Shown one piece after another: positions 2,808-61,048 of a stretch of 64,000 nucleotides of DNA. Position 1 is the first letter of the stretch, and each line of letters starts with the position of its first letter. Below the pieces are notes generated by a model that saw only the letters and a list, made by a program, of their open reading frames with translations, did no database searches and was not told the DNA's origin. The stretch is from NCBI GenBank assembly GCA_017559445.1, contig JAFYSJ010000034.1, positions 270-64,269 of the forward strand, in the 5' to 3' direction. The DNA is from Clostridia bacterium. GTDB taxonomy: Bacteria; Bacillota; Clostridia; RGIG7378. A program made the position numbers and the translations under genes.

Positions 2808-5585
2808 TTATTGATACTTTTTAAACACAATATTAGGATGGCAATTATTAAACGCTGTAGAATCACATTTGTAGCCATTATTTGATACACCAACAGACAT
2901 ACTATATGGCATATTTACTAATGCGAGACTTTCACAATTTGCAAAAGCGCTCTGCCCTATGGACTTTACAGTCTTAGGAATGGTTATTGTTTCCAAAGAA
3001 GAACAACCGCTAAAAGCAAACGCATCAATCATTGTAACTCCTTCTGGGATTGATATGCTCACTAATGATGTGCATTTATAGAAAACAGCATGCTTTATTT
3101 CCGTAACCTTTGATGGTATTTCGAAAGATTCAAGGCCTGAATTACTAAATGCATAGGCTTCGATTACTTCAATTGAATCTGGCAACTCTATTGTTTTAAG
3201 AGCACTACATCCACTAAATACAGAATAGGCTATATTCTTTAGACCATCTGGAATATTCACATTCTTCAAAGAAATACAACCTGAGAACATTCCATCTCCC
3301 ATTTTAACTAAATTATTAGGGAATATTACGGATTCCAAACTTTTACAATTAGCAAAGATACCGCTGTATGTAATCTCTGGGATACTGGATGGCCATGTAA
3401 CACTCTTCAACCCTGTACAGTAGTAAAATGCATTATTTTCAATTGTTTTTACACTATTGGGAATAACAACTTCCTTCATGCCTGTACAATAGTAGAAAGC
3501 ATACATTCCAATTGAAGTTACCGTGTTAGAAATAGTAAAACTTTCAATGTCATACTTATACGCAAAAGCATATTGTTTAATTGAAACTACTGTATATCCA
3601 TCAATTTCAACAGGCATAATGATGTTTGTATCAGTGCAATTGCCAATTCCCGTAATTGTGCATGTCTTTCCATCACTATTTACACTATAAGCTAATCCCT
3701 TTGAGGCAAGTGAATCAACGTATGAATCCACATAGCTATGACCACACTTTGAGCAGGTGTGTGTTGTGTAACCCTTAGATGTTACTGTTGGCGATGTTAC
3801 TACGCTGCTATATGAATGATTTAATGGAGTTACAGTCTGCGCTACAAGCACGGTATTACATACAGAACAATGTCTACCTTCTGTAAGACCTGTGCTTGTA
3901 CATGTTGCGGCTACTGCTGAGTCTATTACTTCTGTATGACCCTTAGCTGGAATCACTGTCTGTGCTACAAGTACCGTATTACATACGGAGCAATGTTTAC
4001 CTTCAGTGAGTCCTGTTCCTGTGCATGTAGCTGGTACAGCCACATCCTTCACTTCAGTATGACCTTTAGCTGGGATTACAGTTTGAGCTACAAGTACTGT
4101 ATTACATGTAGAACAATGTTTACCCTCAGTGAGACCTGTGCTTGTGCAGGTTGGTGACACAGCCACATCCTTCACCTCAGTATGGCCTCTAGCTGGAACT
4201 ACAGTCTGTGCTACAAGCACGGTATTACATACAGAACAATGTATACCCTCAGTGAGACCTGTGCTTGTACAGGTTGGTGACACAGCCACATCCTTCACCT
4301 CAGTATGACCTTTAGCTGGAACTACAGTCTGCGCTACAAGCACGGTATTACATACAGAACAATGCTTACCCTCTGTAAGGCCTGTTTCTGTGCATGTTGG
4401 AGCTTTTGCAGCATCTACTACTTCTGTATGTGACTGCACGGGAACAACAATTTGATCAGCAAGTACTTCATTACATGCAGAACAGTGTCTGCCCTCTGTA
4501 AGACCAGTGCTTGTACATGTTGCTTCTACTGCCACGTCTGTTACTTCTGTGTGACCTTTTGCAGGAACTACAGTCTGAGAAACCAAGATCTCGCCACACT
4601 TTTTACACTTGCTACCATCTGTTAATCCTGCTGTAGTACATGTTGCTTCCTTACCTGGAATAACCTCAGTATTTGAATGTGCGCACTCTGCATCTCGTGT
4701 AAATCCACATACGTTACATGTCTCATCGTACTTATCGTCATATGTATGAGCTACTATTGGAACAATTTCTTGAGAAACTAGTACTGTGTTACATACAGAA
4801 CAATGCTTGCCCTCTGTTAATCCAGACTGAGTGCATGTTGCCGCAACAGCAGCATCCTTTACTTCCGTATGACCCTTAGCTGCAACTACCGTCTGTGCCA
4901 CAAGCACCTTGTTACATACGGAGCAATGCTTACCCTCTGTTAATCCAGACTGAGTACATGTAGCAGCAACTGCTGTGTCTTTTACCTCTGTATGTCCCTT
5001 GGCTGCAATTACTGTCTGAGCTACAAGGATTTCGCCACACTTTTTACACTTGCTACCTTCTGTCAAACCAGCTGTAGTGCATGTTGCATCTTTTCCCACA
5101 AGCTTTTCTACATCTGTGTGAGCACAGTTTATATCGCGAACATATCCGCAAACGTTACATGTATCGTCGTTCTTATCTGTATATGTATGTGCTTTAAGGG
5201 GAACTTCATCCTGAGCAATAAGGATTGCATTACATACGGAACAGTGCATACCTTCTGTAAGACCTGTTTTATCACATGTTGCCTCTACTGCAGTATCTAC
5301 TACTTCTGTATGAGGAACCAGATCAAGTTCCTGAGTTTCTTTATCCCCACAGGAACAAACTCTCTCCTGTTCACCCTTTTCTACACATGTGGAGTCCTTT
5401 GTAGTAGTCCAGTCTCCAAATGTGTGAGTATGATCTGGATTAGGAGATGCTGTTGCCTCAGGTGTTGGAGTTGCAATGTCTCCTGTGTTCTCGCCTGATC
5501 CAAGCATTATAAACAATGCAATACCGATGCCTGCTAAGAGCAAGGCAACGACTGCAATTATTATGATTATTTTTTTGTTTTTCAC
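2808..5585 (-). CDS. Paralogous surface protein: signal anchor, ~12 tandem 41-aa Cys/His modules (GHTEVxDxAVxATCTxxGLTEGxHCSVCNxVLVAQ), C-terminal BspA-type LRR
   Basis: 925-aa ORF, GTG start with GGGAGA RBS; N-terminus near-identical to fragment at 1-136; LRR C-terminus similar to 157-2697 product. Confidence 0.8.
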   Translation of the reverse strand: MKNKKIIIIIAVVALLLAGIGIALFIMLGSGENTGDIATPTPEATASPNPDHTHTFGDWTTTKDSTCVEKGEQERVCSCGDKETQELDLVPHTEVVDTAVEATCDKTGLTEGMHCSVCNAILIAQDEVPLKAHTYTDKNDDTCNVCGYVRDINCAHTDVEKLVGKDATCTTAGLTEGSKCKKCGEILVAQTVIAAKGHTEVKDTAVAATCTQSGLTEGKHCSVCNKVLVAQTVVAAKGHTEVKDAAVAATCTQSGLTEGKHCSVCNTVLVSQEIVPIVAHTYDDKYDETCNVCGFTRDAECAHSNTEVIPGKEATCTTAGLTDGSKCKKCGEILVSQTVVPAKGHTEVTDVAVEATCTSTGLTEGRHCSACNEVLADQIVVPVQSHTEVVDAAKAPTCTETGLTEGKHCSVCNTVLVAQTVVPAKGHTEVKDVAVSPTCTSTGLTEGIHCSVCNTVLVAQTVVPARGHTEVKDVAVSPTCTSTGLTEGKHCSTCNTVLVAQTVIPAKGHTEVKDVAVPATCTGTGLTEGKHCSVCNTVLVAQTVIPAKGHTEVIDSAVAATCTSTGLTEGRHCSVCNTVLVAQTVTPLNHSYSSVVTSPTVTSKGYTTHTCSKCGHSYVDSYVDSLASKGLAYSVNSDGKTCTITGIGNCTDTNIIMPVEIDGYTVVSIKQYAFAYKYDIESFTISNTVTSIGMYAFYYCTGMKEVVIPNSVKTIENNAFYYCTGLKSVTWPSSIPEITYSGIFANCKSLESVIFPNNLVKMGDGMFSGCISLKNVNIPDGLKNIAYSVFSGCSALKTIELPDSIEVIEAYAFSNSGLESFEIPSKVTEIKHAVFYKCTSLVSISIPEGVTMIDAFAFSGCSSLETITIPKTVKSIGQSAFANCESLALVNMPYSMSVGVSNNGYKCDSTAFNNCHPNIVFKKYQ

Positions 5586-5686
5586 TTTGTTTCTCCCTTA
5601 TTTTTGCCAAATAATGAACTAATTTTACAACTTTGCATACCTTTTGTATAGAGCAAGGGTGTCCCTTTCGGAACACCCCGGAGTGA

Positions 5687-8146
5687 TTACTTTTGTGTTA
5701 TTTTTATGTACTTATAAGCATTATTAAATGCTGTCTTATCATATGATCCCTTTGCCATCGTTACATTCGCTAGAGAAGTACAATTAGCAAAACAATAGCC
5801 TGAAATATATGATACCGAAGGCAACTCTATACTTGTTAGAGACGTACAATTAAAAAATGTATAAGGTTCAAGCCAAGTTACATTCTTTGACATTGTAACA
5901 CTCTTAAGTGCTATGCATCCACTAAATGCCCCTTCCTCTATCCAATCTACACTGTCTGGGATTACAATGCTGGTAATGGTTTTGCAACTTTCAAAGGCAA
6001 ATACACCAATAGTTGCAACCCTTTTTTCATTGTACGTAGATGGAATAACAATGTCAGTATCAGTACATGTTCCGATACCTATAACCGTATATGTACCATC
6101 ACTCTCAAGCCTAAACTTAAGACCTAGGGGTCCTGTCTCTAACGGCTTAGGCGTGGGCGTCGGAGTCACTGTCGGTTTCGGCGTTGGTGTTGCCGTAGGC
6201 TTCGGCGTCGGTGTTGCCGTTGGCTTCGGCGTCGGTGTTGCCGTTGGCTTCGGCGTCGGTGTCGCCGTTGGCTTCGGCGTTGGTGTTGCCGTTGGCTTCG
6301 GCGTCGGTGTTGCCGTTGGCTTCGGCGTTGGTGTGGCCGTTGGCTTCGGCGTTGGTGTTGCCGTTGGCTTCGGCGTCGGTGTTGCCGTTGGCTTCGGCGT
6401 TGGTGTGGCCGTTGGCTTCGGCGTTGGTGTTGCCGTAGGCTTCGGCGTTGGTGTTGCCGTTGGCTTTGGCGTTGGTGTTGCCGTTGGCACTGGCGTTGGT
6501 GTTGCCGTTGGCTTCGGCGTCGGTGGTGCCGTTGGCACTGGACTTGGTGTCGGAGTCAAAGTCGGACTCGGAGTTGGAGTCGCAGTCACCATTGGTGTGG
6601 GTGTAGCCGTCGGCCTATGTGTTGGTGTAGGACTTGGCGTAGGACGACCAATAACTACAACCGGCTTTGGTGTTGGAGTTGGAGTCGGTTTAGGTGTTGG
6701 TGTCGGTGTGGGACTTGGTGTAGGCACAGGTGTAGCCGTTGGCACTGGGCTTGGTGTCGGAGTCGCAGTAGGTTCCGGTGTTGCTGTTGGCACTAGACTT
6801 GGTGACGGAGTTGCTGTAGGAACCGGAGTTGATGTGGCCGTTGGCTTCGGTGTTGGAGTTGGTGTTGGCATTGCTGCTTCCCACTTTTTCTCCCAGAATG
6901 GACTAAACTCCACATTAAACAAAGTTAAATCTGCCAATTGCTTATCTATAACTGGCACAGTAACAACCAATTTTCCTCTCAAAAGAGGTGATACACTGAG
7001 TTTCAAATTGCCTGCAACCTCAGGACCACTAGAACCCATATATCCCTTAAGTTGTCCTTCCATCTTTGCAGTAACACCTGCTGCAATTTCTGTACCTGTG
7101 CTACCATAAAGCCTAGAAGTCAATTTTGTTACAACTCCTATGCTTGCATTTCCTGAGAAATCCGCCTCTGTTCCCCACTTAAATGGTTCCTTGGGCTTAG
7201 TAAACTGGTTAATTTCTGTTAGGTCTCCCTTGTTATATATAAATCCCACGACTCTTTCCGTGTCCAAGGAAACCGTTGCAGTAAATGTACCTGTAACATT
7301 TGCACTTCCTTCTATTCCAAAGTACAAATCATTTGTAATAACAACTGGAATTACACAGTAAAAATAGATATTAGGTAATCTTTTATTAGCAATTTCCTTT
7401 TCGTACTCACCATTATATATCTCATGCTCATATTCAAGGGACATTTCACCGTCTGTAATCAAGTGAGTTACTAAAGAAAGCTCTACCTTACGCCACCTAA
7501 CCTTGAGAGTAAACTCAAGCCAAATAGTGCAGCCAATATTGCCCTTTAATGTTGTGTTTTTGGCAAGTTTGAAATTGAAATCTCCAGAATATGCAAATTG
7601 AGCATCTCCATTTGCAAGTCTAGAAAATGCAGGTTCTTTTTCCATGCGTAAATTAGAAAGGTCATTGGAATTACTGCAGAGCAAAATAGCCCCTGCCAAA
7701 AAATCATCTCCACCTTCCAAATCGGATTCATCCATCTCAAAGAAAGTTTCCTCTGTAATAAGGAAGTTCTTAGTAATATTTGCCTCTTCGAAAACATCTG
7801 CAAATGTGGCAGGTTCTGTTTCATACACATACATGCCATCGACAACCTTAACGTCCACTACCTTAACCATGAATCCTGAAGGTGCAACATCTGTAATATC
7901 AGACACAACAACATCACCAATCTGAATCTCTGGATCATGATTGTAAACAAGAGTGTTCTCCTCTACTATGACAGGGGTCTTGGCTTCCTCTGTTGTCTCT
8001 GTAACAATATGTACGTTATCGTTTATGACTGCGGTGCCTTCTGCTGGCATAGAATTCCTGTCGTACAAGAAAATTCCTACACCTACGGCAATAGAAACTG
8101 CCAGAACGGCGCTTATGATAATAGCTAATAACCTACCCTTTGACAT
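5687..8146 (-). CDS. Membrane-anchored surface protein: N-terminal TM, unknown ~400-aa domain, long ([10 protein letters not shown])n linker, C-terminal BspA-type LRR
   Basis: 827-aa ORF (track start 8170; internal ATG at 8146 has a GAGGA RBS); near-perfect 30-bp tandem coding repeats; LRR tail. Confidence 0.7.
6165..6530. repeat. ~12 near-perfect tandem copies of a 30-bp unit (cggcgttggtgttgccgttggcttcggcgt) encoding [10 protein letters not shown]; coding VNTR
   Basis: direct reading of the periodicity in the sequence; the antisense ORFs 5913-7109 and 6211-6438 are artefacts of this repeat. Confidence 0.85.
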
Positions 8147-8266
8147 ATGATCCTCTAGTTTTATGTACATTATTCGTCAATTATAGCACAAAATTCATTC
8201 ACCAACACCAAACACTAAACACTGGACCCTACTTTTGCTATAATTCCCTTAAGGGAGGACAAAATC

Positions 8267-11039: not shown

Positions 11040-11315
11040 TTTCACTAGCGCAGCGGCCTACTAGCAACGCAGTTGCGGTTCACTAGGCGTAGCCGGTTCA
11101 CTAGCAAGCTTTGCTTGCGGCTCACTAGCCGAAGGCGGTTCACTAGGCGTAGCCGGTTCACTAGCAAGCTTTGCTTGCGGCTCACTAGCGCAGCGGCCAC
11201 TAGCAACGCAGTTGCGGTTCACTAGGCGTAGCCGGTTCACTAGCGCAAAATCGCTAAAATCAATCTTAGGAACATTTTTCCTGCGTTAAACACTAACCAC
11301 TAAGCACTAAACACT
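11040..11315. repeat. Modular repeat array, locus 1: ~12 (TTCACTAGC + mini-hairpin) modules (11040-11256) followed by inverted AGTGTT-type repeats (11285-11315)
   Basis: seen directly; hairpin types GCAGCGGC, AACGCAGTTGCGG, GCGTAGCCGG, AAGCTTTGCTTGCGG, CGAAGGCGG; a 60-bp segment is duplicated. Confidence 0.85.
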
Positions 11316-11316
11316 A

Positions 11317-11336
11317 CTAAAATTCACTCGTGAATT

Positions 11337-15801: not shown

Positions 15802-18756
15802 TTACTTCTTAAACTTTGAAATCAATGCCATAAGGTCAGCAACGCTCTTTTTCTTAAGAACAAACCAAACAACTGCGAAACCGCCCGCTCCAAGCACAAC
15901 CGCTCCGCCAATGCATCCAGCCACTATGCCTACAACCGCTCCTGCCTCTAAGCTATCATTATCCTCTCCTATAGAAAGGTCTCTACCACAAACATCACAT
16001 TCTTTATCCCCATCAGTATCCTCGTGGCTAGCCTTGTCATATACATGCTCTTCGCAATCTGCACAGTCGTGCCAGTGGTAGTTCTTGTTCTTTCTCCACT
16101 TTGTCTTTGCTGTGTGCTGAACAGGAGTTACATCTATAGTATCATCTGAAGAATTATTGCTGCCAATGTAGTATGCGCAGACACTGCAGTACTCATATTC
16201 AGTATCGTGAGGCACAACGGAACTCTCATCCTTTGCTCCACAACGACAGATATACCAGTGAGTTGTATCGTCGTTTCTAACAACCTCGTATGTGTGCTCT
16301 ACCTCGCGAATAAAACCACAATTATCGCAATCGGCATCGCATTCGTTAGAGTTATCGTATACGTGACCATTTGCGTGAATCTTGCCATTTGCGTCGATAC
16401 AAAGACCAGATGCATCTTCAATAACTATTGTTCCATCCACTGCTTCAGAAACATTACCAAAGGCGTACAAATTTGTGTTAATGGAATCAGTCTTCAAATA
16501 GGAGCAATCCTTAACCTCGCCACGTCCCCAAATGGATTCGCTATAGCCTGCGATTCCACCAACCATGGTATTACCTGATACATTACCAAGGTTAATATTA
16601 CCTTCGAGTCTGATAAATCTCATCCATCCGACAATACCACCTACATACTCAACACCAGTTACGCAACCAGAATTATTTCCAACGATGCTACCACGATTGC
16701 TGTCGTTGTCCGAAAATCCAATCAAACCACCAACGTACTTTTCGCCTGCGATGTCACCATAGTTATTACCAGATGTCCAGCTATCTCCTGCACCTAAGCC
16801 GCAAACACCACCAACATAATCCTTACCTGTTACGTTACCGTAGTTATCACACTTGCTAGGGTTATAAAGCTCACTGCATCCTCCAGCAATACCACCTACG
16901 TAGTTACCTGTGGAGAAAACATTACCGTTGTTCACACATTCTGTAATATCCCAATGTGTGATATATCCAGCGATACCACCTACATAGTTGCCTTTACCAA
17001 AAACATCTCCATTGTTAACGGACTTTTCTACACTGCCAGCTACACTAGATACAATGCCTCCAACATAGTCCACGCCAACAACTGCACCTTCGAAAGTGCA
17101 ACCATAAATGGTGTGTGAGTTAAGTCCAATACAAATACCAGCTGCAGATCCAGCTGTAGATCTAACATATGCATTCTTAATGCTGATGTTCTTTACGTCT
17201 GTACCCAAATTACATATAAATGCCACATTCTCAGCAGAGTCCATGTAAAGTCCATAAATGGTAAATCCATTACCGTCCAAAATACCATTCAATCCAGAAA
17301 TAGCCTTCCACTTATTCAAAGAGGATGTATCTACTGTAATGTTACCCATTGCATCGTATGTAAGGGCAACTTCGTTAAGAATAATGTCATTAGCCAACAT
17401 GTAGTTGTAGTCCACCCACTCACCACTTAAGTTGGACAAAAAAGCAAGCTCAGAAGCGTTGTAAATCATGTAGTAATAAACGCCGTCTACATTAACAAGT
17501 ACTGTTGGCTCCTTAGCAGATCCATCCCAAGGACCTTCCTGAGCAGGAGGTGTTATTCCCTCTTCTCCTGCAACGTTTCCAAACTCAGTCAAATTGGTGT
17601 TAATTGTGTCATTTTTGTCAAAGGAGCAATTTTCCACGGCACCTCTTCCCCAGATGGAATCACTAAAACCAGCAAGTCCACCTACCATGGTTGTACCAAC
17701 AACGTTACCTGAATTGTGGCAATTTGAAAGGGTAATAAATCTCATCCATCCAACAATACCACCTACGTATTCAATACCAGTTACGCTACCAGAGTTGTTT
17801 CCAACGATGCTACCACGATTGCTGTCGTTGTCCGAAAATCCAATCAAACCACCAACGTACTTTTCGCCTGCAATATCACCATAGTTATTACCAGATGTCC
17901 AGCTATCTCCTGCTCCCAAACCGCAAATACCGCCTACGTAATCCTTACCAATTACGCTACCGTAGTTATCACATTTACTGGGGTTATAAAGTTCACTGCA
18001 ACCTCCAGCAATGCCTCCTACGTAGTTACCTGTGGAGAAAACATTACCGTTGTTCACACATTCTGTAATATCCCAATGTGTGATATATCCAGCGATACCA
18101 CCTACATAGTTGCCTTTACCAAAAACATCTCCATTGTTAACGGACTTTTCCACACTGCCAGCTACACTAGATACAATGCCTCCAACATAGTCCACGCCAA
18201 CAACTGCACCTTCGAAAGTGCAACCATAAACAGTATGTGAGTTAAGTCCAATACAAATACCAGCTGCAGATCCTGCTGTAGATCTAACATATGCATTCTT
18301 AATGCTGATGTTTCTTACATCTGTGCCCAAATTACAGATAAATGAAGCATTTTCTGCAGAGTCCATGTAAAGACCGCAGATGTTAAAACCGTTGCCGTCC
18401 AAAATACCCTTTAATCCAGAAATAGCCTTCCACTTATTCAAGGAAGAAGTATCTACTGTAATGTTACCCATTGCATCATATGTAAGGGCAACTTCGTTCA
18501 GCACAATATCATTAACCAAAATATAGTTATACTCGAGCCACTCTCCGGATGCCTGCGCCAAGTAAGCCAGCTCCTCAGCTGTAGAAATCTCATAATAGTA
18601 AACGCCCTCCACAGATCTAATTACTGTAGGCTGAGTAACTGTCTTGCCATCCCATACCTTAACTTCGTCTGCATATGCATTCTGAGCGTTAAAGCCAACT
18701 GTAACTGCAAGCAAAAGTACAGCAATTACCATCAAAAAGGTTTTAATTTGTTTCAT
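15802..18756 (-). CDS. Large cell-surface protein: signal peptide, two near-identical ~370-aa halves each with GLUG-like repeats, C-terminal Cys/His module, C-terminal TM anchor
   Basis: 984 aa; AGGAGA RBS; signal MKQIKTFLMVIAVLLLAVTVGFNAQNAYA; internal duplication; HWYICRCG...CSVC...CADCEEH...CDVCG; C-terminal hydrophobic helix + KKK. Confidence 0.85.
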   Translation of the reverse strand: MKQIKTFLMVIAVLLLAVTVGFNAQNAYADEVKVWDGKTVTQPTVIRSVEGVYYYEISTAEELAYLAQASGEWLEYNYILVNDIVLNEVALTYDAMGNITVDTSSLNKWKAISGLKGILDGNGFNICGLYMDSAENASFICNLGTDVRNISIKNAYVRSTAGSAAGICIGLNSHTVYGCTFEGAVVGVDYVGGIVSSVAGSVEKSVNNGDVFGKGNYVGGIAGYITHWDITECVNNGNVFSTGNYVGGIAGGCSELYNPSKCDNYGSVIGKDYVGGICGLGAGDSWTSGNNYGDIAGEKYVGGLIGFSDNDSNRGSIVGNNSGSVTGIEYVGGIVGWMRFITLSNCHNSGNVVGTTMVGGLAGFSDSIWGRGAVENCSFDKNDTINTNLTEFGNVAGEEGITPPAQEGPWDGSAKEPTVLVNVDGVYYYMIYNASELAFLSNLSGEWVDYNYMLANDIILNEVALTYDAMGNITVDTSSLNKWKAISGLNGILDGNGFTIYGLYMDSAENVAFICNLGTDVKNISIKNAYVRSTAGSAAGICIGLNSHTIYGCTFEGAVVGVDYVGGIVSSVAGSVEKSVNNGDVFGKGNYVGGIAGYITHWDITECVNNGNVFSTGNYVGGIAGGCSELYNPSKCDNYGNVTGKDYVGGVCGLGAGDSWTSGNNYGDIAGEKYVGGLIGFSDNDSNRGSIVGNNSGCVTGVEYVGGIVGWMRFIRLEGNINLGNVSGNTMVGGIAGYSESIWGRGEVKDCSYLKTDSINTNLYAFGNVSEAVDGTIVIEDASGLCIDANGKIHANGHVYDNSNECDADCDNCGFIREVEHTYEVVRNDDTTHWYICRCGAKDESSVVPHDTEYEYCSVCAYYIGSNNSSDDTIDVTPVQHTAKTKWRKNKNYHWHDCADCEEHVYDKASHEDTDGDKECDVCGRDLSIGEDNDSLEAGAVVGIVAGCIGGAVVLGAGGFAVVWFVLKKKSVADLMALISKFKK
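16430..18700. repeat. Intragenic tandem duplication: two ~1.1 kb segments (about 16430-17560 and 17600-18700) nearly identical at nucleotide level
   Basis: identical peptide stretches in both halves; the spurious antisense ORFs 16565-16762 and 17594-17884 share the same translated sequence. Confidence 0.8.
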
Positions 18757-21625: not shown

Positions 21626-21662
21626 AAAAAAGCGAATTGGAAATTCCAGTTCGCTTTTTTTG
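21626..21662 (+). terminator. Rho-independent terminator (GCGAATTGGAAATTCCAGTTCGC + T7)
   Basis: strong hairpin followed by TTTTTTT. Confidence 0.8.
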
Positions 21663-21905
21663 GTGTTTGGTGTTTAATCATTACTTTGGAACGACCCAAA
21701 GTAACCAAAGGTCGCCCGCTACTTCCGAAGCGCGGGAGGCACGGTTCACTAGCACCAACGGTGCGACCTACTAGCGTAGCGGTTCACTAGCCGAAGGCGG
21801 TTCACTAGCCGAAGGCGGCTACTAGCGAACGAAGTGAGCGGTCACTAGCAACGCTAGTTGCGGTTCACTAACTCCGTGGCTACTAACTCCGTGGTTCACT
21901 AACAA
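21661..21905. repeat. Modular repeat element, locus 2: (GGTGTTT)2 head + 70-nt conserved core (21675-21745) + ~9 (TTCACTAGC + mini-hairpin) modules
   Basis: core identical to 32850-32915; array overlaps the last codons of rqcH. Confidence 0.85.
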
Positions 21906-23634
21906 GCTGTGGTGTCACAACAACTGTATAGTAGTTATCGTAATTTACCATTCCTGGTCTACCACTCTTTGCCTTCTTAACATACTTAATCTTAGTGTAG
22001 TCAACAGAAACCTTGCCTGAGTCAGATCCCTTACTGTAATAAGCTGCAATTTCTGCTGCCTTAATCATTACCTCATCTGGAATCTCTCCCTGCTGCTTAC
22101 GTACAACAACGTGGGATCCTGGCATGTTCTTAGCATGGAACCACATGTCGTTGGAAGATGCCAAATGTAATGTCAAATAATTGTTGGCCAAGCTGTTTCT
22201 ACCAACCAAAATCTCATAACCCATAAAAGTTACAAGCTGTGGTGCATTGGCTTGCTTAGGGTTCTTTTTAGCAGGGACCTTGCGCTTATTCCTAATGTAG
22301 CCCTCCTCTACCAACTCTTCACGAATTGTGAGAACGTCGTTCATGGACTCGCACTGGTCAAGCATATAAAGGGTCTGCTCCAAATACTCAAGCTCTGCCT
22401 CAGAGTTAGCCAACTGCTGAGATGCTGTGGCCATTGTTCTCTTAGCCTTATTGTATTTTTTGTAGTAATTCTGGGCATTTTTCTGCGGAGACATCTGTGG
22501 GTCAAGCTTTACCTTAACCATTTCGGGCATGCCATCCTCGCCAAAAGCACCATAGTAATTGGGTAGCATTACCTCACTTTCCCCACCCTTAATAAGGTAC
22601 ATAGAAGAAGTGATTAAATCTCCGTTAAGTTTCAAAAGGTCCATATCTGCAGCCTGAGAAATAGCTGTTTCCTGGATCTTAATCTTGTTGTTACATCTTG
22701 CTATTGCCTGGCGAACCTGTCTTGCACATCCGCCACGGACACTACCAAGGCGATCTCTAATATCCTTGTCCTTGTAGTATGCGTCTACTGCAGATCTAAG
22801 ATCTGTTGTGTTCTGCACCTTGTCGCCATACTGTGTGAGAGTAATAGCAGAATACTCAACAACTACTCTGCTTGTTGTCTCTCCTCTAATCATGCAAGGA
22901 GTAAACGACTTGTCTACCAACTGCTTGGAAAGAGCTCTTAAAACTCCATCCAACCTGTTTAGTTCATCTTCTGAAAGAGTAGTAGCTTTAGGGTCCAACT
23001 CCGCTCTAAAGGCGATTTCGTCGGCCATGAGTGGTGAAATACCCATAAATGTGTTAATAAGCACATTTCTAAGGGCTGTGGTGCCATCCAAAGTAATCTT
23101 AGATACATCCATTTCCTCTGGATTGAGCTTGTTTTGCTCAGGAGCCATTTCATACTTGCGCATAGGCAAAATTTCTCTGTAAGTATTAACAGATGAGTCT
23201 ACGTGCTTAATGGCGTCTATACATGTACCACCTTCGCTAACGAGGACAATATTGGAATGCTTTCCCATGATCTCCGCAGCCAAGCTACGAATAACCTTGT
23301 CACCCATTTCTGTGGTGGTCTCAAAATCGAAAATGAAAACTCTGTCGTATGGCCTTGTGCGAATATCTACTAATCGTCCACCGCCAATGTACTTGCGCAA
23401 AACCATGCAAAAATTAAGGGGAGTCTTAGGATTCTCCGCCTTGTTTTCTGTAATCTGCACTCTGCAATTGGCTGTGTTGATGTTAAGGAGTAGGCAACAT
23501 GGTTTACCAAGAGAACGCATGTGCAATAATACCTCCTCTGGTGAAGGCATATGTATTTTATCTACTCTTGCTCCTAATAATCTAGACTCTAAGTCGTAAT
23601 AGGTAGCTCTTGCTGTAATTCCGTCAAAACCCAT
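21883..23634 (-). CDS. rqcH: RqcH (Rqc2/NFACT-family ribosome quality-control, Ala-tailing); historically 'fibronectin-binding protein A'
   Basis: 583 aa; NFACT-N start MGFDGITARA...; C-terminal NFACT-R motif DMWFHAKNMPGSHVVV; the C-terminal 7-8 codons lie inside the repeat array. Confidence 0.85.
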   Translation of the reverse strand: MGFDGITARATYYDLESRLLGARVDKIHMPSPEEVLLHMRSLGKPCCLLLNINTANCRVQITENKAENPKTPLNFCMVLRKYIGGGRLVDIRTRPYDRVFIFDFETTTEMGDKVIRSLAAEIMGKHSNIVLVSEGGTCIDAIKHVDSSVNTYREILPMRKYEMAPEQNKLNPEEMDVSKITLDGTTALRNVLINTFMGISPLMADEIAFRAELDPKATTLSEDELNRLDGVLRALSKQLVDKSFTPCMIRGETTSRVVVEYSAITLTQYGDKVQNTTDLRSAVDAYYKDKDIRDRLGSVRGGCARQVRQAIARCNNKIKIQETAISQAADMDLLKLNGDLITSSMYLIKGGESEVMLPNYYGAFGEDGMPEMVKVKLDPQMSPQKNAQNYYKKYNKAKRTMATASQQLANSEAELEYLEQTLYMLDQCESMNDVLTIREELVEEGYIRNKRKVPAKKNPKQANAPQLVTFMGYEILVGRNSLANNYLTLHLASSNDMWFHAKNMPGSHVVVRKQQGEIPDEVMIKAAEIAAYYSKGSDSGKVSVDYTKIKYVKKAKSGRPGMVNYDNYYTVVVTPQLVSEPRS

Positions 23635-23654
23635 ATTTTTTAGTTATCCGTTCG

Positions 23655-23830
23655 TTTCACTCACTAGTGAAACGCTTCGCTAGTGATCCGCGCTATCGCG
23701 CTAGTAGGCCACCTTCGGCTAGTGAGCCGCTTCGCTAGTGATCCGCTTCGCTAGTGATCCGCGCTATCGCGCTAGTAGGCCGCCTTCGGCTAGTAGGCCG
23801 CTTCGCTAGTGATCCGCTTCGCTAGTGATT
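23655..23830. repeat. Modular repeat array, locus 3 (reverse orientation, GCTAGTGA + mini-hairpin), ~11 modules, no core
   Basis: seen directly; hairpin types CCGCTTC, CCGCGCTATCGC, GCC(A/G)CCTTCGGC. Confidence 0.85.
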
Positions 23831-23839
23831 TGTTTTCAC

Positions 23840-30871: not shown

Positions 30872-31168
30872 TTAAAACTGTGTGAAAATATCTATCTCAG
30901 CGACAAATACTACGGCACTACCAACTACGATTGGCTTAGTTGGGTCAACTTCTCTATAAACCTTCCTAGCCTCGTGACAGTATCTGCCAATAATCTCAAG
31001 CACATCGTCTACTCTGTTGTCCTCAACAGCTGCGAACAATGTGGAGTTCTCTCCATTAAGGAATCCACCGTAGGAATCTGTCTGAGTCACAGGATGTCCC
31101 ATGGCTGTCATCTCGTCCATGATGACCTTAGTATCCTCTTTGTTAACTACAGTTACAATCAGCTTCAT
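30872..31168 (-). CDS. darA: DarA (YaaQ/PstA)-family PII-like cyclic-di-AMP receptor, paralog 2
   Basis: 98 aa; MKLIVTVVNKEDTKVIMDEMTAMGHPVTQTDSYGGFLNGENSTLFAAVED aligns with B. subtilis YaaQ/DarA. Confidence 0.75.
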   Translation of the reverse strand: MKLIVTVVNKEDTKVIMDEMTAMGHPVTQTDSYGGFLNGENSTLFAAVEDNRVDDVLEIIGRYCHEARKVYREVDPTKPIVVGSAVVFVAEIDIFTQF

Positions 31169-31176
31169 GACAAAAC

Positions 31177-31503
31177 CTACATCTTAAGATATCTCTCTAC
31201 GTTAAGCACCAAAATGGTTGCTCCGCCGATGTCAACGAGAGTCTTCTCTTCTTCCTTAATCTGGTCCTCAGGCTTGTCGGCACCTAAGTAAACCATCTTA
31301 GTTCTACCATGGCACTGCTCCTTCATGCACTCTACAAAGGAATCTACTCTGTGATCCTCGATAGCGCACATAAGAGTTGTATTCTCCTCTCTAAGGAAAC
31401 CACCTGAAGTCTTAAGCTTAGTAGTTCTAAAATTATTATCGCAAAGAGCCTCAACGATGTTCTTCTCTTCGTCTGTATTAACTATGGCAAAAACTAACTT
31501 CAT
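31177..31503 (-). CDS. darA: DarA (YaaQ)-family PII-like cyclic-di-AMP receptor, paralog 1
   Basis: MKLVFAIVNTDEEKNIVEALCDNNFRTTKLKTSGGFLREENTTLMCAIEDHRVD.. (from memory, close to B. subtilis DarA); ATG at 31503 with GGAGG RBS. Confidence 0.8.
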   Translation of the reverse strand: MKLVFAIVNTDEEKNIVEALCDNNFRTTKLKTSGGFLREENTTLMCAIEDHRVDSFVECMKEQCHGRTKMVYLGADKPEDQIKEEEKTLVDIGGATILVLNVERYLKM

Positions 31504-31629
31504 TAGTCCTCCGACAAAATCAAACAAAAATAATGGATACGGACCATTTTAGCACCGTAATCCATTAAGTCAAGAGTGTCTACAATTGTAATACAAAAGC
31601 GTAAACAATATTACATTTACTAAATATAT

Positions 31630-31986
31630 AAAACCGAGTAAGTCAATAAGCCGGGTTCTGTATTTGACAGTCATCTATCTAGGCCTGAGATCTCTAACAG
31701 GCTCAATCCACCTCCCCGGAACGGACGGGCAGCCCTATTGTTCCTCCACGGTGTTTCTCCGAATGGGGTTTACACGGTTCGGTATGTTACCATATCGCCA
31801 GTGAGCTCTTACCTCACTTTTCCACCCTTACCAAAGCATAGCCTTGGCGGTATTTTTCTGTTGCACTTTCCTTAGAGTCGCCTCCACCGGTATTTCGCCG
31901 GCACCCTTGCCCTACGGAGCCCGGACTTTCCTCGTTGGGGACCTTTCGATCGTCCACCGCGACTGTCCGGCTTACTCGGTTCTATT
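31630..31986 (-). ncRNA. rnpB: RNase P RNA (bacterial rnpB)
   Basis: minus strand contains CGAGGAAAGTCCGGGCTC, GGTAAGGGTGGAAAAGTGAGGTAAGAGCTCACTGG, ACAGAACCCGGCTTA; P1 pairing GAACCGAGTAAG/CTTACTCGGTT defines the ends. Confidence 0.9.
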
Positions 31987-32800: not shown

Positions 32801-33378
32801 TAGTGTTTGGTGTTGAGTGTTTAGTGTTGAGTGTTTAGTGTTTAATAATTACTTTGGAACGACCCAAAGTAACCAAAGGTCGCCCGCTACTTCCGAAGCG
32901 CGGGAGGCACGGTTCACAAAGCTGTGCTTTGCAATGTTTAGTGAATGTCCCTGTGTTCCAGAAATCATTTCACGAGAGCGCAGCGATTCACTAGCGTAGC
33001 GGCCACTAGCGCAGCGGCTCACTAGCACCAACGGTGCGACTACTAGCGAATGCAATGAGCGGTCACTAACGAGCTTTGCTCGTGGTTCACTAGCAACGCA
33101 GTTGCGGCCTACTAGCCGAAGACGGTTCACTAGCGAGGGAAACGAGCGTCTACTAGCGTAGCGGCCACTAGCCGAAGGCGGTTCACTAGCGCAGCGGTCA
33201 CTAGCCGAAGGCGGTCACTAGCAAGCTCCGCTTGCGGCTCACTAGGCGCAGCCGGTTCACTAGCACCAACGGTGCGACTACTAGCAACGCAGTTGCGGTC
33301 ACTAGCCGAAGGCGGTCACTAGCAAGCTCTGCTTGCGGCTCTCTAGCACCAACGGTGCGACTACTAGCGCAGCGGATA
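32801..33378. repeat. Modular repeat element, locus 4 (largest): (TAGTGTTK)6 head, 70-nt core (32850-32915), unique ~75-nt insert, then ~25 (TTCACTAGC + mini-hairpin) modules
   Basis: seen directly; about 30 CTAG tetramers in 450 bp; hairpin repertoire shared with loci 1, 2 and 5 (GCAGCGGC, CCGAAGGCGG, AACGCAGTTGCGG, ACCAACGGTGCGA, AAGCTCYGCTTGCGG). Confidence 0.9.
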
Positions 33379-59163: not shown

Positions 59164-59356
59164 GCTAGCAGGAAATGTTTATACAACCGAAGGAGTAACA
59201 CTCTCAGGTATCCAACTGGATGAGGACCGCTGGCCGATGGAACTTTGGAGAATCCCTTTTTAGGGTGCCGAAGGTGCAAAGCAATCTGCTAATCTCTCAG
59301 GCAAAAGGACAAAGGATTTTATTCACCCATTAAATTGGGTTTACTTTTGTTTTTTA
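59164..59356 (+). promoter_or_regulatory. Glycine riboswitch, tandem aptamers (59164-59312), plus terminator-type expression platform (ACCCA-ttaaat-TGGGT + U-run, 59325-59356)
   Basis: both aptamers show ..CCGAAGG(A/T)G.AA...CTCTCAGG....AGGAC; second aptamer has GGAGAA P1; located before a Na+/Ala-Gly symporter. Confidence 0.75.
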
Positions 59357-59406: not shown

Positions 59407-60939
59407 ATGGGAAAGTTTGTTGAACAGATTACCAACATTAACAACGTGATTAACGAGTTTGTGTGGGTAAAAATCGGTCTTATTTTGTTAATTGGTGCTG
59501 GCGTACTTATGACATGCTGCACAGGTTTCTTCCAGATTGGCCACGTCGGTCTTTGGTGGAAAGAGACTATTGGCTCCATGTTTAAAAAGGATGGTGGCGC
59601 TACTAAGAAAACTGACAGAAAGTCTATTTCTCAGTTCCAGGCTCTTTGCACAGCTTTGGCTGCTACTATCGGTACTGGTAACATCGCTGGTGTTTCTGCC
59701 GCTATCGTAATTGGTGGTCCTGGTGCTGTTTTCTGGATGTGGGTTGCTGCCTTCTTTGGTATGATGACTAACTACTCCGAAAACGTTCTGGGTATGTACT
59801 TCCGCCGACGCAACAAAGACGGTGAGTGGTCCGGTGGTTCCATGTACTTCCTTAAGGATGGTCTTGGCAACTACAAGGGGTGCAAGGCTATTGGTTCCGT
59901 ACTTGCTGTTCTCTTTGCTATCTTTGCCATTCTCGCTTCCTTCGGTATTGGTAACATGGGCCAGATCAACAAGATCACACTTAACCTTGAGTCCGCTTTC
60001 TTTAAGTCTGTAGACCTGGGTGCAGTTGCTGGCGTACCTGTTATTAATTTGATCATCGGCTTTGCTCTTATGGTTGTTGCAGGTCTCATTATCATCGGTG
60101 GTCTTCAGAGAATTGCTTCCTTTGCAGAAAAGGTTGTCCCCTTCATGGCTCTCTTCTATGTAATTGGTGCAGTTATTGTTACAGTTCTTAACTTCAACAT
60201 GCTTGGCGATATCTTCACTTCTATTTTCAAGTTTGCATTTGGTGTTAAGGCTGTGGCTGGTGGTGCTGCTGGTGTAGCAATTAGTCAGGTTATTACTCAG
60301 GGCTGCAAGCGTGGTGTTTTCTCCAATGAGGCTGGTCTTGGTTCCTCCGTTATGGTCCACTCCTCCTCCAACGTTAAGGAGCCTGTTAAGCAGGGTATGT
60401 GGGGTATCTTCGAGGTATTCTTTGATACATTTATCGTATGTACAATGACTGCTGTTGTAGTTCTTTCCTCTGGTGCTATCGACCTTAAGACTGGTGCTGT
60501 AGCTGCTGGCATTAACGATGCAACTTTAGTATCTCAGGTATTTGGTAATACATTTGGTCAGTTTGGTGAGTATTTCGTTGCTATTGCAATGCTTCTCTTT
60601 GCATTTACAACTGTTCTCGGCTGGTCCCAGTACGGTGTTAAGGCTGTTGAGTACCTCATGGGCGCAAAGGCAGTTAACATCTACAAGGTAATCTTCGTAT
60701 TCATGATCATGTCCGGTGCTGTTATGACATCTTCCCTTGCTTGGGATATTTCCGACACATTCAATGGTCTTATGATGGTTCCCAACCTTATTGGTGTTGT
60801 AGCCCTCTTCCCGTTGGTTAGAAAGATTACCAAGAACTATGTTGCAAGACATAAGAAGGGCGAAGATATTGAGCCTATGATCAACTTTGACAAGGCAGTT
60901 CAGGCAGAGGTTATGAACTCTGATGTGGTGGTTGAGTAG
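59407..60939 (+). CDS. agcS: Sodium:alanine/glycine symporter (AGCS family)
   Basis: AGCS signature ..GTGNIAGVSAAIVIGGPGAVFWMWVAAFFGM..; 11-12 TM; ATG at 59407. Confidence 0.88.
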   Translation: MGKFVEQITNINNVINEFVWVKIGLILLIGAGVLMTCCTGFFQIGHVGLWWKETIGSMFKKDGGATKKTDRKSISQFQALCTALAATIGTGNIAGVSAAIVIGGPGAVFWMWVAAFFGMMTNYSENVLGMYFRRRNKDGEWSGGSMYFLKDGLGNYKGCKAIGSVLAVLFAIFAILASFGIGNMGQINKITLNLESAFFKSVDLGAVAGVPVINLIIGFALMVVAGLIIIGGLQRIASFAEKVVPFMALFYVIGAVIVTVLNFNMLGDIFTSIFKFAFGVKAVAGGAAGVAISQVITQGCKRGVFSNEAGLGSSVMVHSSSNVKEPVKQGMWGIFEVFFDTFIVCTMTAVVVLSSGAIDLKTGAVAAGINDATLVSQVFGNTFGQFGEYFVAIAMLLFAFTTVLGWSQYGVKAVEYLMGAKAVNIYKVIFVFMIMSGAVMTSSLAWDISDTFNGLMMVPNLIGVVALFPLVRKITKNYVARHKKGEDIEPMINFDKAVQAEVMNSDVVVE

Positions 60940-61048
60940 TGAACCGCTGCGCTAGTGAGCCGGCTGCGCCTAGTAGGCCGCTGCGCTAGTGAGCCGCTTC
61001 GCTAGTAGGCCGCTGCGCTAGTGAGCCGCAACTGCGTTGCTAGCGCGT
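60937..61048. repeat. Modular repeat array, locus 5 (reverse orientation, ~7 modules) starting at the agcS stop codon
   Basis: GCTAGTGA/GCTAGTAG alternating with GCCGCTGC, GCCGCTTC, GCCGCAACTGCGTT hairpins. Confidence 0.85.

Follow-up and report, generated by a model that had tools for sequence, protein, structure and literature searches.

Five intergenic sites within a 64-kb window of the "Clostridia bacterium" contig JAFYSJ010000034.1 (the window being the whole stretch of DNA analysed, 64,000 nt) are filled with tandem arrays in which a short CTAG-containing linker alternates with perfect mini-hairpins, and they raise the question of which kind of repeat these arrays represent and by what process they came into being. 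The source is a metagenome-assembled genome (MAG) from ruminant gut samples, representing an uncultured rumen species. The explanation favoured here, to which an even chance is given, is that the arrays constitute a lineage-specific family of extragenic palindromic repeats that behave like repetitive extragenic palindromic (REP) sequences, bacterial interspersed mosaic elements (BIMEs) or other mosaic elements.

The five arrays, all of them present where the initial annotation of this DNA had placed them, total 1,061 nt, which is 1.66% of the window, and contain 53 of its 135 CTAG tetranucleotides. They are the following:

11041-11244, plus strand: 10 mini-hairpin units and a terminal linker, in the ybaK-groEL gap
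21745-21866, plus strand: mini-hairpin array of 7 CTAG units, downstream of rqcH
23645-23832, minus strand: 9-10 mini-hairpin units, with the rpe stop (23840) on one side and the rqcH start (23634) on the other
32985-33375, plus strand: 19 mini-hairpin units with CTAG, flanked by the trmK promoter and the tRNA-Met terminator
60937-61044, minus strand: mini-hairpin array of 6 units, from the agcS stop codon to ~50 nt before a bidirectional terminator

When the arrays are split at CTAG, the unit is found to consist of CTA, a perfect mini-hairpin that begins with G and ends with C, GG and a further 2-4 nt ending in CA or TA. The constant 9-mer described in the initial annotation is indeed enriched (exact TTCACTAGC is present in 12 copies against 0.61 expected, a number reached in 0 of 100 shuffles), but the constant part is really a degenerate linker of 9-11 nt, GG-(0-2 nt)-(C/T)A-CTA-G. 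Similarly, all the hairpin segments listed there are perfect palindromes, but segment length is 7-15 nt instead of 8-16 nt, and the avoidance of CTAG elsewhere is borne out (82 observed outside the arrays against ~230 expected from base composition, or ~0.36 of expectation), but each array holds 6-19 copies and not 10-30. Stems measure 2-6 bp and loops are mainly GAA, GCA and GTA (G-N-A, hereafter GNA). Within every locus the units have a single orientation, as had been claimed, which is in order +, +, -, +, - for the five arrays. Both ends of an array are bounded by a TTCA/CTA junction, and every hairpin is flanked by direct repeats of 9-11 nt. The unit lengths (15, 16, 17, 18, 21, 22 and 24 nt) do not run in multiples of three and there are stops in all frames; the arrays are therefore not coding repeats.

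Around 19 module types can be distinguished over all strains, 15 of which are perfect palindromes. These comprise 7-mers (GCGAAGC, GCGCAGC and GCGTAGC), 9-mers (GCCGAAGGC, GGCGTAGCC, GGCGCAGCC and GCCAAAGGC), 11- to 13-mers (GACCGAAGGTC, GCGCGATAGCGC, GCACCAACGGTGC and GCAACGCAGTTGC), 15-mers (GCAAGC-TTT/TCC/TCT-GCTTGC and ACGAGCTTTGCTCGT) and a GCGA...GAGC group, in which the inner stem is flanked by two tandem G.A mismatches. Changes in the stems are paired, as seen in GCC/GGC versus GGC/GCC, GCAAC/GTTGC versus GCACC/GGTGC and GCAAGC/GCTTGC versus ACGAGC/GCTCGT, and the inner stem of the GCGA...GAGC group is AC/GT in one strain (GCGA-AC..GT-GAGC) and GT/AC in another (GCGA-GT..AC-GAGC). The distribution of modules is partly locus-specific and partly shared: 10 of 11 GCGAAGC copies lie in the rpe-rqcH array, where GCGCGATAGCGC is also mainly found, and all six copies of GGCGTAGCC are in the groEL array and only there, which fits growth in situ with occasional exchange between loci. 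The GCGAAGC, GCGCAGC, GCGTAGC and GCGCGATAGCGC-type modules match exactly the mini-hairpin DNAs d(GCGNAGC) and d(GCGNNAGC) (PMC13037366), and the longer modules are closed by the same GNA loops. In d(GCGNAGC), two G-C pairs and a sheared G-A pair form a hairpin of exceptional stability in single-stranded DNA, which melts at ~76 C and is nuclease-resistant (PMC13037366). The motif is known as isolated hairpins at single-strand origins of phages and plasmids and at promoters (PMC13037366), whereas in the window it occurs in dispersed hypervariable chromosomal arrays, a form not known for it.

The corresponding loci were fetched from other assemblies via their neighbouring proteins (fetched loci carry labels such as L004, L006, L094 and L106). 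Among strains with 97-98% nucleotide identity in the flanks, arrays are kept at all four comparable loci with the same first and last junctions, and their interiors are very different. Upstream of trmK there are 19 units in the window and 5 in a strain whose flanks are 97% identical; the groEL-ybaK array has 10, 6 or 21 units, the rpe-rqcH array 9, 11, 13 or 7, and the array downstream of rqcH 9, 7 or 17, where the ~7 differ from the units of the window. The module-number polymorphism that had been proposed as a check is thus pronounced at these four loci; the agcS array was seen in one version, bar a single-nucleotide polymorphism. Larger rearrangements are also apparent. The ybaK-groEL array contains a 60-nt (3-unit) duplication with 100% identity, the rpe-rqcH array, in which the unit-forward strand is the mRNA sense, contains a 71-nt higher-order repeat in 2.3 copies, and locus L011 equals L010 minus six internal units that lie between two identical units, all of which are signatures of misalignment between repeated units. 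Assembly artefact had been named as a condition that would undo the arrays; the same arrays were nevertheless recovered for one and the same strain from independent samples and assemblers (the window, from an NCBI MAG, equals L006 and L101, and L008 equals L009), across assembly types that include NCBI MAG, ENA scaffolds, MEGAHIT k141 contigs and Logan, so the arrays are not artefacts, although some assemblies break, end or leave N-gaps within them.

The lineage is an isolated one, with RqcH homologue identities of 100, 90, 84, 77 and 68%, followed by 39%. In the sister species (L094, L106 and L107; ~81% nucleotide identity, RqcH 90% and YbaK 94%), no mini-hairpin arrays are present upstream of trmK, between rpe and rqcH, downstream of rqcH or between groEL and ybaK, nor elsewhere in ~32 kb, and none are present in the more distant relatives examined. 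The rpe-rqcH site of the sister does contain one singleton, CACTG-GCGAACGCAGTTCGC-GG, which is a complete unit with a GCA triloop. From the absence of arrays together with this singleton, it follows that the arrays arose or exploded after the species split, and at least once from a single hairpin. The recent insertion or expansion suspected in the initial annotation is therefore strongly supported by the comparisons of strains and of sister species.

Two further differences from the sister concern other genes. Downstream of rqcH (L094 11623-11874), it has an 83-aa open reading frame (ORF) where the window species has a core and an array; judged by reading its translation alone, this ORF resembles the N-terminal portion of a GNAT acetyltransferase. 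Past ybaK and a tRNA, the sister carries AbiEii and AbiEi (type IV toxin-antitoxin/abortive infection) genes (L106 3342-4256 and L107 3483-4250), a position at which the window species lacks them.

Besides the arrays, the window contains two copies of a 70-nt core, several runs of a heptamer repeat and degenerate sequences that border on them:

8199-8225, minus strand: isolated heptamer repeat between two divergent promoters, without adjoining array or core
11245-11336, plus strand: segment of ~90 nt containing an unrelated spacer, four heptamers in inverted orientation (11287-11316) and, just past the groEL stop, an AT-rich hairpin
21659-21675, plus strand: 2.4 copies of the heptamer TTTGGTG, with a bidirectional terminator on one side and core copy 1 on the other
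21680-21749, plus strand: first copy of the 70-nt core, with the same sequence as copy 2 and a final GGTTCA that is the first linker of the array
21867-21910, plus strand: degenerate CTAA-type units (GGTTCACTAACTCCGT...), whose minus strand encodes the end of RqcH
32801-32845, plus strand: heptamer repeat (TTAGTGT-like), ~6.4 copies, adjoining both the core and the divergent trmK promoter's -35 on their upstream sides
32848-32917, plus strand: 70-nt core copy 2, with two hairpins and the end GGTTCAC, scoring 100 bits with model R1
32918-32984, plus strand: core-array spacer of degenerate unit-like pieces (a CAAAGC-TGT-GCTTTG hairpin and GTGAATG...CATTTCAC), kept between strains

The two cores are identical and contain two hairpins (TTACTTTGG/CCAAAGTAA and GTC.CCCGC/GCGGG.GGC), as had been described, and two base pairs of hairpin 1 covary. 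Both copies run into the first linker of the adjoining array. A search of the sister loci with a covariance model built from the core, another of the checks proposed at the outset, located it in the sister species. There, it is part of a 122-nt tandem unit directly past the groEL stop, in 2 copies in L106 (2216-2460) and at least 4 copies in L107 (2150-2615), the latter containing an assembly gap. Another copy overlaps the ybaK stop in L106 (2962-3032), where it supplies the final residues and the stop of YbaK, and is absent from L107 (3110-3135), so that YbaK has 158 aa and ends inside a core hairpin in the former and has 155 aa in the latter; the insertion polymorphism rewrites the C-terminus. 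The cores past groEL and ybaK are sense-oriented and follow the stops immediately. The tail of the 122-nt repeat holds GCCAAAGGC- and GCGC-AGG-GCGC-type mini-hairpins and a CGG-CTAAGC-GG junction, which suggests that the grammar of modules and linkers grew out of this tail. The core is older than the arrays.

The idea of a mobile core with an expandable tail gains partial support in that the core is conserved, multiplied and polymorphic in the sister and two arrays begin exactly at its 3' end, but three of the five arrays have no core. The traits of miniature inverted-repeat transposable elements (MITEs) that the core displays are presence/absence polymorphism and multiple near-identical copies. 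No terminal inverted repeats were noticed on reading, no tool search for them having been made, and its hairpins are internal; comparison of the occupied and empty sites downstream of ybaK (L106 versus L107) gave no clean boundaries and no clean target duplication. The alternative suggestion that the core is an independent small-RNA gene has no support, as the promoter scan detected no promoter on its own strand. Together with the lack of an Rfam match, this indicates that the core behaves not as a demonstrable small-RNA gene but as a non-coding element that is small and mobile or amplifiable.

The heptamers of TAGTGTT type are a separate simple repeat present at four loci, at two of them just upstream of promoters. 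In line with the initial annotation, (T/G)(A/G)GTGTT heptamers precede both cores and are inverted at 11287-11316 and 8204-8223. Their copy number varies by strain (6 versus 2 at 32801-32845), and blastn finds heptamer runs with 82-93% identity in records of unrelated bacteria, namely Vibrio europaeus, Neisseria gonorrhoeae and Segatella copri. The ~90-nt segment at 11245-11336 is missing from L004 and L010, where the array begins 10 nt past the groEL stop.

A stop codon lies within 0-16 nt of four of the five arrays, three of those four being upstream of a terminator: the groEL, agcS and rqcH arrays are found between stop codon and terminator, the rpe-rqcH array between two cistrons, and the trmK-upstream array between the tRNA-Met terminator and the trmK promoter. 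The claim that arrays abut stop codons was accurate even at the level of single codons, since the agcS TAG (60937-60939) is the CTA of the terminal linker and degenerate units supply the C-terminal 8 residues of RqcH (QLVSEPRS) along with the stop codon of its gene (21883-21885); in relatives, RqcH ends just after ...VVTP with 2-6 unrelated residues. The surroundings are a housekeeping region of ~42% GC with groESL, pcrA, hpf, rqcH, rpe, rsgA, a PASTA kinase gene and trmK, together with RNase P RNA, tRNAs, transketolase, aspS and agcS, the last of these behind a glycine riboswitch. With respect to transcription, the unit-forward strand is the sense strand in one of the four transcribed arrays and the reverse complement is in the other three. 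With respect to replication, GC skew is uniformly negative across the window, and both array orientations therefore occur within one replichore. This mixed orientation, which is consistent with neither direction, argues against a single strand-specific role in RNA or on the lagging strand. It favours instead what may be a selfish or neutral DNA element, tolerated away from promoters and ribosome-binding sites. The same tolerance argument has been made for REPs, which are likewise biased to sites downstream of genes (PMC3733652).

How such arrays would form can be outlined on the basis of their structure. A few intergenic sites would be permissive for seeding, most of them lying between a stop codon and a terminator, and an array would start from either a small mobile core of ~70-120 nt, whose 3' end is the linker (GGTTCA|CTAG), or a lone hairpin unit. 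Classic sites of slipped-strand deletion and duplication are palindromes with a short direct repeat on either side, and the 9-11-nt direct repeats that flank every hairpin provide a substrate for slippage and unequal recombination, by which units would be added, removed, duplicated and reshuffled within arrays. At the constant linker, slipped-strand mispairing and unequal recombination would thus act on single units and on blocks, and modules may pass between loci by gene conversion. The arms of each stem would be kept complementary either by selection for structure or by quasi-palindrome template switching within the hairpin, a process that copies one arm onto the other, so that "compensatory" changes then appear at once. 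The very stable GNA mini-hairpins would favour both slippage and template switching. No dedicated cellular function would be needed, and the likely side-effects are stable hairpins in the 3' untranslated region (UTR) or in intercistronic RNA that might act as REP-like exonuclease barriers, and stops in all six frames.

Several observations weigh against this explanation. No mobilising enzyme or mechanism for the seeding step is identified in the DNA read, and the view of copy number and context extends to ~74 kb of the genome (the 64-kb window and 10 kb beyond). The ~19 modules, 15 of them with perfect stems, are not easily obtained in a species-young family through point mutation and slippage alone, and such a repertoire needs an older hidden reservoir or a palindrome-making process. 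The strong conservation of CTAG in the linker is unaccounted for under a purely neutral model. Some differences in unit number (for example L010 versus L011) could be assembly effects due to collapse of arrays from short reads. Finally, the folding of hairpin types that had been proposed as a check yielded no support at the level of whole arrays, in which nearest-neighbour folding (ViennaRNA, both strands) was no better than for shuffles, either as DNA (z = 0.0 and 0.2) or as RNA (z = +2.4 and -1.2). This last result is attributed to the fact that standard thermodynamic models do not predict the stability of GNA mini-hairpins (PMC13037366), for which reason the hairpin claim rests on 15 independent perfect palindromes and not on energies.

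Among known systems, REPs and BIMEs resemble the arrays in several respects. They share extragenic GC-rich palindromes, a short conserved unpaired tag beside the stem (C-TAG here and G-TAG there), mosaic arrays with conserved linkers, a location mostly downstream of genes, and a number and arrangement that vary with strain or species; the extragenic high-copy trait of REPs is present already within the window (~53 units in five arrays in 64 kb). Head-to-tail REP clusters and REPs with 5-bp stems are on record (PMC3733652). The hairpins described here are, however, of 7-15 nt with stems of 2-6 bp, whereas REP palindromes are imperfect and of ~20-40 nt, and many unrelated stems share one linker. 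The tag here is (A)CTA(G), which has only TAG in common with GTAG, while REP tags are GTAG/CGTC, and CTAG is never mentioned in the survey of REP systems (PMC3733652). Defined linkers are found in BIMEs too, but BIME orientation alternates and the units here are strictly direct. The host also differs, being a member of the Clostridia with no gene for a REP-associated tyrosine transposase (RAYT) in the ~74 kb examined, whereas no Firmicutes were reported in the survey of REP/RAYT systems (PMC3733652). The exclusion of REP and BIME in the initial annotation is hence correct in the strict sense of membership, but too sweeping with regard to affinity: the arrays fail the tests for REP and BIME (size, tag, alternation), for CRISPR and for Rfam families, and REP/BIME and mosaic elements such as the neisserial intergenic mosaic element (NIME) are the closest working analogue.

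In NIME, dRS3 repeats (20-bp inverted repeats) alternate with RS units of 50-150 bp. The likeness lies in the combination of a short constant repeat with a small repertoire of variable units, shuffled at several intergenic loci; the difference, apart from the lack of sequence similarity, is that palindromy here belongs to the variable parts, the constant part being a linker of 9-11 nt that is not palindromic. The pneumococcal BOX element is likewise modular, with modules of 45-59 nt and a variable number of internal modules, the latter being the point of likeness, and has no sequence relationship to the arrays. The short tandemly repeated repetitive (STRR) sequences of cyanobacteria are intergenic tandem heptamers of variable copy number, like the TAGTGTT runs, but they are not linked to hairpin arrays and have no sequence relationship to these runs.

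The leading alternative, which is nevertheless unlikely, is that the arrays are built of cassettes by a RAYT-like single-strand enzyme. According to this proposal, an enzyme of the HUH/Y1, RAYT-like or IS200/IS605-like type, or some other site-specific enzyme, would recognise the hairpin and its CTAG/TTCAC tag and insert cassettes 3' of a target that is regenerated at each cassette end (..TTCA|CTAG..), so that they pile up head to tail; a self-regenerating target builds direct arrays naturally. The strictly uniform orientation per array agrees with this, as do the same TTCA/CTA junction on both sides of the arrays, the one linker common to many different perfect hairpins and the behaviour of the core as a mobile insertion in the sister species. 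A conserved unpaired TAG-containing tag directly 5' of a GC hairpin is also a feature of the GTAG REPs cleaved by RAYTs (PMC3733652). The placement of GNA loops and tandem G.A pairs on one strand, with 22 of the 23 GCGNAGC motifs found on the unit-forward strand, implies that a single-strand form is involved. Against such a proposal speaks, in the first place, the gene content: the search for a RAYT-like gene that had been suggested found none, and no transposase, HUH or cas gene either, among the scanned ORFs and locus gene tables of the window and the 10 kb beyond it. The presence of both orientations in one replichore fits poorly with strict targeting of the lagging-strand template, strains differ most clearly by the duplication and deletion of blocks and not by the insertion of single cassettes, and hairpins with 2-bp stems are far below any known transposase end in size. 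The absence of Firmicutes from the REP/RAYT survey (PMC3733652) points in the same direction.

Somewhat less probable again is a functional RNA, in which arrays or core would serve as exonuclease barriers, processing sites or a protein sponge in 3' UTRs or intercistronic RNA, with the number of hairpins tuned by selection. Four of the five arrays do lie within predicted transcription units (groEL, agcS and rqcH, from stop to terminator, and rpe-rqcH), the sense-oriented cores directly past the groEL and ybaK stops of the sister and the covarying base pairs of core hairpin 1 would agree with a role in RNA, and REPs are known to stabilise upstream mRNA (PMC3733652). Orientation relative to the mRNA is nonetheless mixed (3 reverse and 1 forward), GNA triloops and G.A tandems are on RNA at one locus only, and the trmK-upstream array follows a terminator. 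RNA folding z-scores that are not significant and the lack of an Rfam match or a core promoter add to this, and the drastic turnover of units and their absence from the sister argue against a conserved requirement.

Still more doubtful, but distinct in its consequences, is a dedicated writing process, in which a single-strand DNA enzyme or a polymerase-like process would add mini-hairpin cassettes singly beside the self-regenerating TTCA|CTAG site. If this were the case, the arrays would be a genomic tape of GNA mini-hairpins, serving for example as priming or pause sites that exclude single-stranded DNA-binding protein, or as nuclease-proof ends of RNA or DNA, and they would represent a new class of repeat-generating system and not a REP relative.

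An array of binding sites on double-stranded DNA is improbable. Here, (G)TTCACTAG sites would recruit a nucleoid-associated protein or a regulator, or serve a CTAG-specific restriction-modification system as decoy or hot spot, which would account for the linker being better conserved than the rest of the unit (exact TTCACTAGC in 12 copies) in a genome segment where CTAG is otherwise depleted, and related TAGTG/CACTA heptamers lie just upstream of two promoters. The sites, however, are irregularly spaced (15-24 bp), so that helical phasing is lacking, binding to the linker leaves unexplained why the segments in between are perfectly palindromic, no candidate protein was found, and the lack of arrays in the sister means that there is no conserved regulon.

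An assembly artefact or a CRISPR-like array, suggested by the N-gaps or ends within arrays in some assemblies and by the alternation of constant and variable parts with strain-variable length, can be dismissed, given the identical arrays from independent samples and assemblers, a constant part of 9-11 nt as opposed to 24-48 nt, "spacers" that are palindromes of 7-15 nt, drawn from a small repertoire and recurring both within a locus and at different loci, the presence of five arrays in 64 kb, no leader and no cas genes among the scanned ORFs, in line with the earlier judgement that this is not CRISPR.

The view that the arrays are an undescribed repeat is upheld by searches of Rfam, the REP literature and public sequence collections (185,579 species genomes, JGI metagenomes, IMG/VR, plasmids and phages). 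Rfam searches over arrays and core gave no match at the gathering threshold and chance-level matches only (E > 1) at a permissive one. A scan with the commonest module and linker, CTAGCCGAAGGCGGN{2,5}ACTAG, returned a single match from the 185,579 species genomes, in a Chloroflexota MAG, which is probably unrelated, one chance match inside a coding region from the JGI metagenome contigs, and none from the viral contigs of IMG/VR. A looser three-anchor pattern gave 81 matches in the viral contigs, all of them ordinary coding tandem repeats, and the core had no match there; blastn of core and array against plasmids and phages matched the heptamer simple repeat alone. A literature search by sequence string retrieved primers only, a search for arrays via spurious ORFs, with a synthetic 419-aa query, returned nothing at E <= 1, and no description of CTAG-tagged head-to-tail mini-hairpin arrays was found in the REP literature searched. 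The Chloroflexota match is itself a small CTAG cluster past a stop codon: at L001 6359-6422 (JAQBVF010000002.1), in a 62% GC genome, six CTAGs in 64 nt straight after the stop include CTAGCCGAAGGCGG and a repeated CGACTAGC, which may be an analogous small cluster or chance.

Four further identities were considered and rejected. GGTTCA does not mimic the T-arm of a tRNA, as its flanks are not complementary. The units have no terminal inverted repeats, contrary to what an IS630-type MITE at the TA of CTAG would show. Spacing and half-sites do not fit operator arrays of LexA, Rex, CRP or TrpR. With regard to ToxI-like repeats of type III toxin-antitoxin systems, the neighbours of the arrays are groEL, ybaK, rqcH, rpe, trmK and agcS, with no adjoining ToxN-like gene.

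To our knowledge, nearly all descriptions of REP/BIME-type repeats come from Proteobacteria and a few other phyla, and the origin and spread of these repeats are debated. Here, a Clostridia lineage carries a structurally distinct analogue of REP/BIME that has seemingly been caught young, since one species has arrays and its sister does not, with the likely seeds, a conserved core element and a singleton hairpin, still visible and with very fast turnover between strains. Such a family offers a natural system for studying the birth of extragenic palindromic arrays, for asking whether hairpins with direct repeats on both sides promote their own expansion, and for assessing the chromosomal relevance of GNA mini-hairpins, which are known mainly from biochemistry and phage origins. 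On a practical level, the arrays provide high-resolution strain markers for an uncultured rumen bacterium, and they are a likely cause of broken or collapsed short-read assemblies.

The window has other features that are separate from the arrays. Two adjacent paralogous genes for PII-like cyclic di-AMP receptors (CdAMP_rec) at 30872-31527 adjoin the RNase P RNA (31631-31978). The glycine riboswitch at 59235-59322 lies directly upstream of agcS, which encodes a sodium:alanine symporter; the TTG start listed for the agcS ORF overlaps the riboswitch, and gene callers place the start later (510 aa). Large predicted surface proteins with long internal tandem repeats are encoded at 2808-8170 and 15802-18756; among these repeats are units of 123 nt at 3831-5027 and 15 copies of a 24-nt unit at 6177-6536. 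The lengths of the surface-protein genes vary by strain (819-827 versus 795 aa, and 697 versus 925 aa), and a 984-aa ORF for one large predicted surface protein contains internal 809-nt duplicates.

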